DNA from: Eledone cirrhosa
Taxonomy: Eukaryota
NCBI GenBank assembly: GCA_964016885.1
Contig: OZ024741.1
Coordinates: forward strand, 15,066,001 to 15,130,000
Direction of reading: 5' to 3'
DNA: 64,000 bases
Shown: positions 34,229 to 54,854 of the stretch, one piece after another
Position numbering within the stretch: position 1 is the first letter of the stretch
Layout of the letters: the number at the start of each line of letters is the position of its first letter
Program-made: the position numbers and the translations under genes
The notes under the pieces: generated by a model
Seen by the model: the letters and a program-made list of their open reading frames with translations, nothing else
What the model was told of the DNA's origin: nothing
Databases searched by the model: none

Positions 34229-34291
34229 TTTCATTATATATATTTCGGGGATATCATATTAACAATATGCTATGCCTTCATCAGACAAAAT
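34229..34291 (-). ncRNA. Minimal hammerhead-ribozyme-like motif, type B (left arm of the inverted repeat)
   Basis: Reverse complement reads CUGAUGA-AGGCAUAGCAUAUU-GUU-AAUAUGAUAUCCCC-GAAA-UAUA-UA. Confidence 0.65.
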
Positions 34292-37224
34292 ACAATATAA
34301 ACAGTTTTATAGATAAATATATTCGACATACCGTAATAAACATCGACTTCATTTGAAGAGGTTTACGCTAGCAGTGAGAATACAGAGAGAAAGAAAGAGA
34401 GAAAAAAAAAGGGAGAAAAAAGAAAGAAAGACAAAACGAAGAAAAGGAAGAAAAAGAAGAAAAAGAAAAAGAAGAAATGCATGGAACAAAATAGAGAGAT
34501 GGAAAAATAGATAAAGCGAAGAGCTTCATGTAAAGAAACAGAAAGAGATATATATATTTGAGAGAGAGGAAATAGAGATAGATACATATATATATATAGA
34601 AAATTAGGTAGTGGGAGGTCATTTTGAGTAAGTGTATCAATGATACATTTATTTATTTATTTATTTATTTATTTATTTATTAGCTCAAGTATTAATGTAA
34701 GGGAGATATATAGAGAGATATAGAGAGATATAGAGAGAGAAAAAATTTAAAAATAGCCAGACATATTCGAGGCGTAGAAAACCCTATGTTTTAATGTATT
34801 AGTATTTATAAAACTTACACTATATTGTAAATATCAGTATTCCTGAATGAAACAAGTATCCATAATGTGTGAAAATTCATTATCTTATGTTTAGTTTTAA
34901 AAAATTCATATGTTTATGTGACAGCTACAAACATCAATGTGAATCCAACTGATTCACTCTGCAAACTCTAAGTTACCGGAAAACATTCTCAATGTGGTAT
35001 AAAAATTTGAGCGTATTATTATTCTTGCGATTACTCTACAAGATTATCTATCAAGCAGAAATAGAGAGCAGATTTCAATATACCAATCAAAAATATATAT
35101 TATATTATAAACAAAACTAAAAATAAAAATAAAAAGATAACAATAATGATAATAATAAGTAAAAATATAGAATAGAAAACTAAAAAAATATATTACGAAA
35201 GAATATTACATAATAAAAATATTGCATATTAAAAATACTACGTATTAAAAAATATTACGTATTAAAAATTTACATATTAAAGATATTAAAAATATTAAAA
35301 ATAAAAATAAAATAAAAATAAAAAATAAAAAATATTATAGAATACTACAATACTAAAAGAATAAAAATAAAAATAAAAATAAAAATAAAAATAAAAATAA
35401 AAATAAAAATAAACCACAAAGAACAACCCTTCAAAGTTAATTGACAATATATTGCCAAGTTCATTACAAGACAAAGCCAAAAATTATCTATCGAATCACA
35501 TCTAGCAAAGAACATCTCAAAAAGATTATGATGTCCAATTATGTCTACATATGTTCCCATATTTAATATAGAAGTTTATCTAGTGTAAGGTTAATTCAAA
35601 AAATTTGGAGCATCGGCTTTTAGGGTAGCTTAATTTTTCATGAGGAATGTTTAGATAAAAATAAATTCCCTTAACCTACGGACAAATTTATTCAGTTGTT
35701 GCAAACATAGATTAAACTCAACGTTTAAATATGAATTTAAATTTAAAATGTAGTATATTTAGTTTGATTTATATTTATATGAGAACTAGCCGATAAATTT
35801 TTTGATTCCTAAATCTTTGATTCCCCCTTTTTACTCTTTTTTTATTGTTTATTTTATTTTATTTATTTTTATTTTTATCTAAACATTCCTCATGAAAAAT
35901 TAAGCTACCCTAAAAGCCGATGCTCCAAATTTTTTGAATTAACCTTACACTAGATAAACTTCTATATTAAATATGGGAACATATGTAGACATAATTGGAC
36001 ATCATAATCTTTTTGAGATGTTCTTTGCTAGATGTGATTCGATAGATAATTTTTGGCTTTGTCTTGTAATGAACTTGGCAATATATTGTCAATTAACTTT
36101 GAAGGGTTGTTCTTTGTGGTTTATTTTTATTTTTATTTTTATTTTTATTTTTATTCTTTTAGTATTGTAGTATTCTATAATATTTTTTATTTTTTATTTT
36201 TATTTTATTTTTATTTTTAATATTTTTAATATCTTTAATATGTAAATTTTTAATACGTAATATTTTTTAATACGTAGTATTTTTAATATGCAATATTTTT
36301 ATTATGTAATATTCTTTCGTAATATATTTTTTTTAGTTTTCTATTCTATATTTTTACTTATTATTATCATTATTGTTATCTTTTTATTTTTATTTTTAGT
36401 TTTGTTTATAATATAATATATATTTTTGATTGGTATATTGAAATCTGCTCTCTATTTCTGCTTGATAGATAATCTTGTAGAGTAATCGCAAGAATAATAA
36501 TACGCTCAAATTTTGATACCACATTGAGAATGTTTTCCGGTAACCTAGAGTTTGCAGAGTGAATCAGTTGGATTCACATTGATGTTTGTAGCTGTCACAT
36601 AAACATATGAATTTTTTAAAACTAAACATAAGATAATGAATTTTCACACATTATGGATACTTGTTTCATTCAGGAATACTGATATTTACAATATAGTGTA
36701 AGTTTTATAAATACTAATACATTAAAACATAGGGTTTTCTACGCCTCGAATATGTCTGGCTATTTTTAAATTTTTTCTCTCTCTATATCTCTCTATATCT
36801 CTCTATATATCTCCCTTACATTAATACTTGAGCTAAATAAATAAATAAATAAATAAATAAATAAATGTATCATTGATACACTTACTCAAAATAACCTCCC
36901 ACTACCTAATTTTCTATATATATATATATGTATCTATCTCTATTTCCTCTCTCTCTATATATATATATATCTCTTTCTGTTTCTTTACATGAAGCTCTTC
37001 GCTTTATCTATTTTTCCATCTCTCTATTTTGTTCCATGCATTTCTTCTTTTTCTTTTTCTTCTTTTTCTTCCTTTTCTTCGTTTTGTCTTTCTTTCTTTT
37101 TTCTCCCTTTTTTTCTCTCTTTCTTTCTCTCTGTATTCTCACTGCTAGCGTAAACCTCTTCAAATGAAGTCGATGTTTATTACGGTATGTCGAATATATT
37201 TATCTATAAAACTGTTTATATTGT

Positions 37225-37288
37225 ATTTTGTCTGATGAAGGCATAGCATATTGTTAATATGATATCCCCGAAATATATATAATGAAAT
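37225..37288 (+). ncRNA. Minimal hammerhead-ribozyme-like motif, type B (right arm)
   Basis: CTGATGA at 37232, long helix II (CATATT/AATATG core, two mismatches further out), GAAA at 37270, palindromic AUAUAU in the helix III position. Helix I is imperfect. Confidence 0.65.
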
Positions 37289-37331
37289 AAATATGGTTTT
37301 ATAAATATAGTTTTCCATTTATTTAATATTG

Positions 37332-37406
37332 TATATATATATATATATATATATATATATACATATATATATATATATATATATATATATATATATATAT
37401 ATATAT
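37332..37406. repeat. (TA)n microsatellite abutting the 3' end of the type-B element
   Basis: Seen directly. Confidence 0.95.
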
Positions 37407-37589
37407 GCATATACATTAAGAAAGATGCTGATGTTACATATATATATATAATTATTTGAAGAACAGGCAGATAAAATTTACGTAAGTTTTCTTCTTAGTC
37501 CAGAGAAATTAACTAAATAAAAATCAATTAAACGGAGCTAAGTTTAAAATGTAAGTGTGAGGAAATAATACCAATATCCATCTTGCCCC

Positions 37590-37672
37590 GACTCTCGACA
37601 GTTTCGCTTGTGTTATGCGAAAATGTGTAATCGTTGCATTATCACCGAGGCCTCAAGCTTATCAAGGGACTC
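37590..37672 (-). ncRNA. Degenerate hammerhead-like motif, type D (U3-A8 core, long helix II)
   Basis: Minus strand reads GAGUCCC-UUGAUAA-GCUUG...CAAGC-GAAAC-U-GUC-GAGAGUC. Helix II closes with 5 bp and helix I pairs at 5/7 positions. Confidence 0.45.
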
Positions 37673-52909: not shown

Positions 52910-52945
52910 CTTTACCGGTTTCGCAGTTCTTCTGCTTTTCAAAAG
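52910..52945 (-). ncRNA. Minimal hammerhead-like motif, type C (U3-A8 core)
   Basis: Minus strand reads CUU-UUGAAAA-GCAG-AAGAA-CUGC-GAAA-CCGG-UA-AAG: perfect helix II, palindromic ACCGGU, helix I CUU/AAG. Confidence 0.65.
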
Positions 52946-52999
52946 TAGAATTGAGATGGAGGGTTTGTGGTTTTTCTCACATCTCATATATATATATAT

Positions 53000-54400
53000 A
53001 ACTTTGATAACTTTGATAGGTTTCGGCCAGTATTGGCCCAGGCCACGTCTAACTTAATAGCACCACCTGGCGAAGTCTTATAAATCAGGGTTTGGGCGCC
53101 GTCGCCCACTCGAGTAGAGAGTTATTGTTTACGGAGGCATATCCGGGTGTAGGGGGCTTATCCGGGATTTCTCGAAGGAATTTGTCCAAAGACTTCTTGA
53201 ACTTGATGGGGTCTGTTTCTGTTTTGATATGTTTTGGTGTAACGTTAAAGAGAGCAGGGCCAATTGAGCTGAAATAATTGTGCCGGATTGTTGTTATGAG
53301 ATGCGAGTGAGATTTTTGTCGTAGGCGGATAAGCACGGGGCCCAAGCCTTGGGTGTACATTAAAGGTGATGCCAACATCATTTGGGCAAAGCTGATGGAA
53401 TATTTTCCACATCATACAGATAATGTAGCGCCCACGGCGACGTTGAAGAGAATAAAGGTTGAGCTTTTCTAATCAACTCCAATAGTCAAGGCCTGTCATG
53501 CCATCTATCTTTTTTGTAATCGATCTTTGGGGTGCTTCAACTTTATGATACTTTGTTTCGTGTGGGGAGATCACAGTGGACAACAGTATTCAAGGTGGGG
53601 TCGGGCGAAAGTGGAGAAGAGAAGGATACCTGTGGATATCTCTCGACTGGAAAGTTCTAAGAATCCAGAAACACATTCTGTGAGCCATGTCAACTTTGCT
53701 GTTTATATGAGTGGCCCAGCTTATGTTGTTGTCCACAATTACTCCCAGGTCTCTGATCTTGTTGGATGCCACTAGAGTTTCACCCGAAGGAAGAGAGTAT
53801 GGTAGTTTCAGGGCATCCTTATCTTCATTCAACAACATATTATTCATCTCTGCCCATTGGATAACAGCCAGTAGGTCTGACTGAAGTCAAGTCTGGTCAC
53901 CCACCTCATTGATGACCCTTTGGAGCTTGGAATCATCTGTGAAGATTCTTATGTTACTGTGCTTGATGATGTCAGTAATGTCATTAATGTAGATGATGAA
54001 AATAAGTGGGCCCAACACAGTGCCTTGTGGGACGCCACTGCTGACTTTGGCAGGGTTTGATATTACTCCTTCGACTACAACATGTTCGGTTCTGTTTGTC
54101 AGGAAACATTTGATCCACTGTAGTAATTTTCCAGAGACACCAATATTGGATAGTTTCTTCAGTAGAATCTTATGATCAACCCTGTCGAAGGCCTTGCTGA
54201 AATCAAGGTAGATAACATCAGTGTTGGAGCCCTCTCCCAAGGCTCTCAAAACATCGTCAAAGTGATGGAGGAGCTGCGATAGGCAGTCCCTTCCATTACG
54301 GAATCCATGTTGGTTGAGTTCAGCAGGCCGTTGCTTTCAAGAAAGTGGGTTATTCATGATCTCACCACCCTCTCAAATACCTTGATAATATGACAGGTGA
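53000..54400 (-). mobile_element. 5'-truncated CR1-like LINE: reverse transcriptase pseudogene plus 3' tail
   Basis: DVIYLDFSKAFDRVDH, SGVPQGTVLGPLIFIIYIND, FTDDSK (YADD motif altered), IRDLGVIVD and FKKSLDKFL..IPDKP, with stops and frameshifts. 3' stem-loop GGCCAATACTGGCC and TATCAAAGT tail repeats. Confidence 0.92.
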
Positions 54401-54521
54401 GTTATATATATATATGAGAACGGATTTTTAAAAATCCGTTTTTAAATTCACTATCCAAGGAAAATTCAACTGATAAGGTATGTTCCTTGGCTATGTCAAA
54501 ATTTATAAAACACACTTTGTA

Positions 54522-54578
54522 TATTATCTGATGAAAGCGTACCAAAGGCTTTTTGGTACCCTTGAAATATATATAATA
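54522..54578 (+). ncRNA. Minimal hammerhead ribozyme motif, type B
   Basis: UAUUA-U-CUGAUGA-AAGCGUACCAAAG-GCU-UUUUGGUACCCUU-GAAA-UAUA-UA-UAAUA: helix I 5 bp, helix II ~12 bp with one C-C mismatch. Confidence 0.78.
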
Positions 54579-54790
54579 GAATAAATATGGTTTTATAAAT
54601 ATAGTTTATTTAATATCATTGTATATATATATATATATATATATATATATATATATATATATATATATATATATATATATATATATATATATATATATAT
54701 ATATATATTCCTGACTATCCAGGAAGCTCCAACCGTTAAGGTTGTCTTTTTTTCCGGGTATGGCAATATTTATTTATAAAACAAATCTGT

Positions 54791-54854
54791 ATTTTATCTG
54801 ATGAAAGCGCACCATAATTTGCCTTGGTTGCCCTTGAAATATGTATAATAAAAT
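54791..54854 (+). ncRNA. Minimal hammerhead ribozyme motif, type B
   Basis: UUA-U-CUGAUGA-AAGCGCACCA-loop-UGGUUGCCCUU-GAAA-UAUG-UA-UAA. Confidence 0.7.

Follow-up and report, generated by a model that had tools for sequence, protein, structure and literature searches.

What carries ten hammerhead ribozyme-like motifs within some 20 kb of microsatellite-rich DNA, and how did they come to be there? The question is raised by a 64,000-nt stretch of the Eledone cirrhosa genome (assembly GCA_964016885.1; positions 15,066,001-15,130,000 of OZ024741.1, a 416-Mb contig of a 3.0-Gb genome), here called the window, for which an initial annotation had listed ten such motifs and attributed them to several non-autonomous retroelement families. 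We conclude with high confidence that nine of the ten are hammerheads of pseudo-long terminal repeats (pseudo-LTRs) belonging to five families of Penelope-like elements (PLEs) that carry an open reading frame (ORF), three of Hydra type and two of Neptune type, inserted in TA microsatellites, and that the tenth sits in a decayed, non-coding, retrozyme-like copy of ~550 nt that was likely mobilised by a PLE protein. The earlier attribution is not supported for five of the six families (nine of the ten motifs), whose ORF-bearing PLEs lie elsewhere in the genome; mobilisation in trans, which it implied, fits only the remaining family (D) and is unneeded for the other nine motifs.

Reality and structure of the motifs

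About 40 kb of the window is simple tandem repeat, and the motifs lie within the 23 kb between the arrays, a middle part rich in (TA)n, (CA)n and fragments of mobile elements. All ten were located at the positions and on the strands that had been listed. A relaxed descriptor (core CUGANGA or UUGANAA, helix II with mismatches tolerated, GAAA, a self-complementary insert, UH, and a helix I of at least 3 bp) matched eight of them, all in 34001-55000, and zero other sites in the 64 kb, compared with a mean of 0.015 relaxed matches (maximum 1) in 200 local dinucleotide shuffles, so that the counts in real and shuffled sequence are not similar. A strict descriptor matched six, versus a shuffle mean of 0.01. 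The relaxation was introduced after the motifs were known, and the blind genome sample described below is the cleaner control. The catalytic core is intact in eight motifs and, as had been noted of some cores, decayed in two, both of family B: the core at 42528 carries C3U with G8 kept, and that at 44163 reads CCAGTGA, with G5 lost. The ten motifs represent at most eight insertion events, those at 34284 and 37232 being the two arms of a single inverted insertion and the copies at 47558 and 47763 being 99% identical. No eleventh motif came up in the window when 112 distinct hammerhead contexts of other loci were used as BLAST queries.

The minimal type I layout of the Penelope and retrozyme kind is borne out by the core, by covariation and by palindromes of 4, 6, 8 and 12 nt that replace helix III (TATATA, TATGTA and TGCGCA variants occur in related families), and the motifs do belong to abundant repeat families. 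Four broad sequence types can be recognised, as first described, but they resolve into six families (A, A', A'', B, C and D); similarly, the description of the insert as a short palindrome holds for A, B and C, whereas D carries a 12-nt palindrome able to close a 4-bp helix III. In a genome-wide alignment of 41 distinct A-group rows, picked by their 3' flank only, helix II position II.5 is G-C in 20 and A-U in 14, and II.6 is U-A in 23 and C-G in 18. The covariation that had been proposed as a check is therefore present, and pairing in helix II reaches 0.91, compared with a mean of 0.84 and a maximum of 0.87 in 1,000 arm swaps, a figure to be taken as support and not as a probability, since the rows are related. 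Compensatory changes were found in both helices I and II. Helix II position 4 is unpaired in all 41 rows (C-C in 37) between neighbours that covary (window region of 37242, 54538 and 54808), and may mark a tertiary or protein contact.

Rfam hammerhead models had been suggested as a further check. No hammerhead family appeared among the best 150 of 216 Rfam matches for the window, which were microsatellite-driven microRNA matches only, nor when the D region was scanned alone; standard Rfam scans miss these hammerheads.

Families of the window

The motifs and the copies that hold them are as follows, with the source of each assignment in brackets.

34090-35665, minus strand: inverted, 5'-truncated arm of family A, with 3' untranslated region (UTR), pseudo-LTR and a long 3' end with tail (+145 from the cut), adjoining (TA)n (96% identity to the ORF-bearing tandem copy L041)
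34227-34292, minus strand: hammerhead A, core CUGAUGA intact, AUAUAUAU as palindrome, cleavage predicted after AUA at 34235 (descriptor)
35663-37339, plus strand: forward arm of family A, with ORF end, ~1.5-kb 3' UTR, pseudo-LTR and short 3' end (+58), adjoining (TA)n (95% identity to L041)
35664-35750, plus strand: last 29 codons of the family A reverse transcriptase-endonuclease ORF, including the N..CxH end of the Hydra-type endonuclease (tblastn with the family A protein P0001, 28/29 identical)
37224-37289, plus strand: hammerhead A, core intact, cleavage predicted after 37281 (descriptor)
37443-37833, minus strand: family D, part of a retrozyme-like unit (~550 nt, non-coding, circularly permuted) in decayed form (82% identity to the unit in L166)
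37585-37670, minus strand: hammerhead D with U3-A8 core, 5-bp helix II, 43-nt loop, 12-nt palindrome (one mismatch here) and GUC cut site at 37590 (descriptor, alignment)
42382-42638, plus strand: family B (Neptune-type), 5'-truncated pseudo-LTR (89% identity to L165, where it lies behind a GIY-YIG ORF end)
42524-42559, plus strand: hammerhead B with uncompensated C3U (sequence comparison)
44028-44305, plus strand: family B pseudo-LTR with an internal inverted insertion (sequence comparison)
44159-44194, plus strand: hammerhead B, G5 lost, predicted dead (sequence comparison)
47477-47627, plus strand: family B, short copy (sequence comparison)
47554-47589, plus strand: hammerhead B, intact, palindrome ACGU, GUU cut site (descriptor)
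47647-48171, minus strand: family B, longer copy, tail to tail with the copy at 47477-47627 (sequence comparison)
47732-47767, minus strand: hammerhead B, intact (descriptor)
52773-52984, minus strand: family C (a second PLE of Neptune type), pseudo-LTR that begins at the modal 5' end (-72) and has the long 3' end (+140) (alignment of copies)
52910-52945, minus strand: hammerhead C with U3-A8 core, palindrome ACCGGU and 3-bp helix I (descriptor, alignment)
54447-54635, plus strand: family A' (Hydra-type), short pseudo-LTR copy (alignment; ORF link in L296 broken by insertions)
54520-54583, plus strand: hammerhead A', intact (descriptor)
54714-54905, plus strand: family A'' (Hydra-type), short copy of the pseudo-LTR, starting at the modal 5' end (-134) (joined in L303 to a Hydra ORF end via a 1.3-kb UTR)
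54790-54855, plus strand: hammerhead A'', intact (descriptor)

Hydra-type elements

Copies of family A are ~100% identical over 181 nt and lie in ~3.9-kb tandems and inverted pairs (best 40 of 636 candidates). At one locus (L041) the ORF is flanked by two A pseudo-LTRs, and another (L179) holds an open family A frame of 745 codons with RWR, DKT, CxCX5C and CxxC..E..N..CxH and with no CCHH. Read by eye against the Hydra definition in PMC8557442, the motifs of this protein (P0001) match those of the Hydra clade with its C-terminal endonuclease, with RWR for RWK, and would place family A there; the ORF has 17 database relatives, without names, at 31-38% identity. The window itself holds one A insertion, an inverted arm (34090-35665) head to head with a forward arm (35663-37339). 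The initial annotation had seen no PLE ORF in the window, and this needs amending by the 29 final codons of the A ORF that the forward arm retains. Partial tandems, an inverted 5'-truncated arm, an optional tail and a (TA)n target make up an insertion anatomy like that of endonuclease-bearing (EN+) PLEs. For A'', the end of a Hydra ORF, 1.3 kb of UTR and the hammerhead are contiguous in L303. Hydra elements are very numerous in this genome and often intact: a first look returned 92,276 candidates (not copy numbers), and most of the 62 that were scored had no stop. A search of sequencing runs with a family A query listed no RNA run, an outcome that speaks neither for nor against expression.

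Family A resembles the published Hydra clade, which includes Hydra-1_Obim of Octopus bimaculoides (PMC8557442), in its single ORF with an RWK-like motif, DKT, CxCX5C, CxxC and CxH and without CCHH, and further in the hammerhead near the 3' end, the (TA)n target, the inverted 5'-truncated arm and the tail at one end only; Hydra-1_Obim is listed with a hammerhead and a (TA)n preference in the supplement of that paper. It differs in length, published Hydra elements being generally <3 kb and family A ~3.9 kb with a 1.5-kb 3' UTR; in its minimal hammerhead with an 8-nt palindrome, where the motif listed for Hydra-1_Obim has a 4-bp stem III; and in RWR, where the clade has RWK (PMC8557442). Being young and with an open frame, family A could serve for the first biochemical work on an element of the Hydra clade.

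Further, very abundant Hydra-clade families (L237-L266) were also seen, many with stop-free frames of 713-758 codons, and their flanks hold hammerhead-like cores with an odd-length insert that falls outside the descriptor.

Neptune-type elements

Family B lies behind a GIY-YIG ORF end in L165, and of the 12 loci that a search with this coding piece retrieved, 10 have the B hammerhead ~500-600 nt downstream of the ORF end. The C hammerhead is present in all 25 loci retrieved with the upstream segment of C, seven of which show a GIY-YIG ORF end upstream, in sense. The two ORFs share a CX4CX2C linker. B and C thereby resemble Neptune-type PLEs with minimal hammerheads (PMC4209133), which likewise lie behind GIY-YIG ORF ends with this linker; B also shares an additional nucleotide that separates position 9 from position 10.1, and a short palindrome, and the U3-A8 core of C is reported in Schistosoma PLEs (PMC4209133). 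A difference is that no intact ORF was seen for B or C, and the label Neptune over Nematis was given by motifs.

Other origins were considered for C. It appeared at first to be a non-autonomous element, all 24 top matches sharing their 5' end, and this was dropped once upstream-extended copies led to the GIY-YIG ORF end. The adjacent CR1/L2-like reverse transcriptase fragment (53085-54400) was rejected as its source, other C copies being without the fragment. A search with a distant Hydra protein for the partner of C gave other Hydra families, whose flanks were unmatched by the descriptor. A genome search with the post-cut part of B alone gave no candidate and was uninformative, common words having probably been skipped.

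In the C 3' UTR (L044, L297), repeated GCGCGAAA and CCAAT motifs stand just upstream of the modal 5' end, an arrangement that we take to resemble a cell-cycle promoter. The B copies in 47477-48171, which are 99% identical, stand tail to tail around (TA)11, the usual PLE order being head to head, and still combine one short and one long 3' end.

A retrozyme-like unit

Family D differs from the others in being non-coding. Its insert is a 12-nt palindrome in an alignment of 25 copies; among 33 rows chosen by flank only, 30 have the U3-A8 core and 29 the GUC site, while one related copy has a U3-G8 core and a helix II paired differently. At one locus (L166) two D cores lie at a distance of 550 nt without an intervening ORF, adjoining an inverted arm and (TA)n. 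More than 1.01 units were found in 12 of 25 loci (examined of 1,770 candidates), reading through the unit junction, with a longest copy of 1.59 units; an array of two complete consecutive units was not found in these 25. PLE-protein matches in D loci are neighbouring insertions or, once, a weak match. The 4-bp helix III is calculated at -1.4 kcal/mol as a monomer versus -19.3 as a dimer duplex, so D could form a weak helix III as a monomer. Taken together, D is likely a non-LTR retrozyme-like unit carried by PLE machinery.

Like metazoan non-LTR retrozymes (PMC7229834; 10.64898/2026.07.22.740005), D is non-coding, AT-rich and head-to-tail, with one type I hammerhead per unit. In contrast to the units described there (~220-390 nt), that of D measures ~550 nt and has a U3-A8 core, a 43-nt loop II and a 12-nt palindrome; most D loci hold about one unit, with two fixed 3' ends and inverted arms of the PLE type, and D is old (80-88% identity), its circle being putative. 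A link between retrozymes and PLEs has been argued by Li et al. 2026 (10.64898/2026.07.22.740005).

Points that weigh against this assignment

Several observations pull away from the reading of nine motifs as pseudo-LTR hammerheads of ORF-bearing PLEs. Pfam gave no match for P0001, and on the B ORF end gave GIY-YIG at E=0.005 only; clades were assigned by motifs, without a tree. Copies joined to a Penelope ORF, for which a genome-wide search had been proposed, were found for the pseudo-LTR families, the link being weakest for A', which in L296 lies downstream of a Hydra ORF end with nested insertions between the two. No intact full-length B or C ORF was seen in the loci examined, the longest open pieces having 372-454 codons, and for this reason B and C may now be dormant or moved in trans. 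In monomer folding no motif did much better than shuffles (z +0.9 to -2.2), and the window copies of A and D prefer other folds. Poor monomer folding is expected because these are minimal hammerheads; the ribozymes are predicted to be weak and dependent on a dimer or on the element's protein, and a dimer requirement for cleavage of A, B and C would accord with the literature.

Abundance in the genome

Sixty 10-kb stretches (600 kb) at fixed round coordinates of the large contigs, small unplaced contigs being left out, served as a blind sample. They contained 31 relaxed matches in 15 stretches (22 strict), one of the 31 resembling an artefact of a satellite; 10 shuffles gave 0-2 each. Extrapolation gives ~155,000 motifs (bootstrap 80,000-245,000), or about one intact motif per 19 kb, and the density of the window is about seven times the mean. 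The sample also held eight or more additional hammerhead types (L105-L164), some with 8-nt palindromes and helix II regions of 40-55 nt.

The axolotl genome is about ten times larger than that of E. cirrhosa. Published counts used other descriptors and allow a rough comparison only, in which the total here is similar to the 126,247 of axolotl (PMC7229834), next to >6,000 in a coral (PMC7229834), ~9,000 minimal motifs reported for Xenopus tropicalis (PMC4209133) and, in giant squid, 235 Rfam hammerhead matches (PMC6962438).

Ends of the copies and a model of integration

Where copies begin and end may bear on how the motifs became so numerous. Of the 245 distinct copies, 233 have their start 10 nt or more upstream of the predicted cut, and three start no further than 3 nt from it. 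The 233 copies span the cut site, and the templates were therefore mostly uncut. The modal 5' end coincides with the initiator-like A of a YCA motif at -125 in A', -134 in A'' and -72 in C, and in A the 5' ends are centred on it (-144/-138 around -141). This adenine would be the transcription start, which agrees with Penelope, where transcription starts inside the pseudo-LTR (PMC2377424). The C cluster holds in untargeted loci, where 8 of 14 copies start at -66 to -77. The 3' ends are bimodal, with two fixed ends per family: +58/+145 in the A group and +70-78/+140 in C. Of 70 head-to-head pairs, 67 join a long to a short 3' end, where 50% would be expected if the two were independent (p about 5e-17).

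These data can be accommodated in one model. A PLE protein would nick both strands of a TA tract, and reverse transcription, mostly on RNA that had not been cleaved, would be primed for each strand at its own fixed internal RNA site, the two sites lying 60-145 nt past the hammerhead. If primed in the downstream pseudo-LTR, it would yield 5'-truncated copies such as the A insertion of the window; if primed in the upstream pseudo-LTR, it would run off at the RNA 5' end after 130-290 nt and leave short copies with a sharp 5' end, as in C, A' and A''. The template of D would be an RNA circle or a tandem transcript. In its boldest form, the model attributes the ~150,000 intact hammerheads of the genome to PLE proteins that would start priming within the 5' leader of their own mRNA and insert no more than the stretch from transcription start to tail; one complex per insertion would prime the two strands at different fixed RNA sites, and the same rule would copy the putative D circle. 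We rate the chances of this boldest form being right as about even. If true, genomic copies would be a direct read-out of the second-strand step of Penelope elements, with an intact young Hydra-clade element at hand, and the fixed ends and the long/short pairing give a testable model of how PLE RNA is copied into both DNA strands.

The closest experimental parallel is PAc, the Poseidon element of Anolis, which in vitro initiates internally at two sites, extends both strands and uses uncut RNA as its main substrate, and for which protein-assisted cleavage was also observed (PMC11167929). Two internal start sites that define the tail, the use of both strands, an uncut template and an AT-rich target are common to both systems; the tails of PAc measure 30-40 nt, those here 60-90 nt, and in 67 of 70 genomic pairs a different site was used on each strand (PMC11167929 for PAc). 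Two considerations count against the model. In vitro, PAc showed no difference in start site between the two strands (PMC11167929), which by itself predicts no strict long and short pairing; and most loci were top-scoring matches of targeted searches, with end distributions biased toward copies that cover the query.

An alternative is that the short copies (C, A', A'' and many of A and B) are self-propagating non-autonomous elements, each a solo pseudo-LTR with an internal promoter that is recopied in trans. They are very numerous, with fixed 5' and 3' ends, the Penelope of D. virilis does have an internal promoter (PMC2377424), and two helix I variants occur in short C copies versus essentially one in the 25 upstream-extended copies. 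However, the same sequences run upstream into UTR and ORF in other copies, and internal priming on the RNA of the full element accounts for both fixed ends with no need of a second family; we regard this alternative as possible but doubtful.

A less credible view, which we consider unlikely, has the hammerheads cutting element RNA in vivo, with cut products or circles as the main templates for all types, a role proposed by Cervera and de la Pena (PMC4209133). The core and helices are conserved, with covariation between families, and D reads through its unit junction as a circle would, yet only the three copies noted above start within 3 nt of the cut, and hammerhead mutants left insertion in vitro unaffected (PMC11167929). 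No copy ends at the cut either, but the search demanded at least 20 nt past it, so that such ends were uncountable. Finally, chance matches in AT-rich, microsatellite-rich DNA, to which the AU-rich helices of several motifs, unremarkable monomer folding energies and the silence of the Rfam hammerhead models (among the best 150 of 216 window matches and in the D region) might point, are refuted almost beyond doubt by the shuffle counts (8 versus 0.015, and 31 versus 0-2 in the blind sample), the compensatory changes and covariation, and the position of the motifs in PLE pseudo-LTRs.

Relation to known systems

It has been known since 2014 that PLE pseudo-LTRs contain hammerheads and that these occur in great numbers in animal genomes (PMC4209133); a 2021 supplement lists a hammerhead-bearing Hydra element of octopus, and in the paper itself the frequent one-end-only tail had already been noted for PLEs (PMC8557442). 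No published cephalopod hammerhead census and no strict pairing of long and short ends were found in the literature, subscription papers being mostly outside the scope of that search, and the word ribozyme is absent from the main text of a recent Octopus vulgaris repeat annotation (PMC13282606). The six families of the window are additions to a known system, a dense but mostly ordinary example of it, and their value is quantitative and mechanistic more than the discovery of a new kind.

Other features of the window

Very long strand-skewed tandem arrays flank the motif-bearing middle at 1-5106, 6502-32186 and 55405-63981, with periods of 24, 41 and 9 bp, and extend past the window. An open frame of 335 codons at 38391-39398 (plus strand), without a Pfam match, lies inside a repeat with TA-centred inverted ends, presumably a DNA-transposon fragment, part of which recurs at ~37840-37930 (minus strand). 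The interval 53085-54400 (minus strand) holds a broken reverse transcriptase of the long interspersed nuclear element type (RVT_1, E=3e-18), which ends just upstream of the C copy and is unrelated to it.

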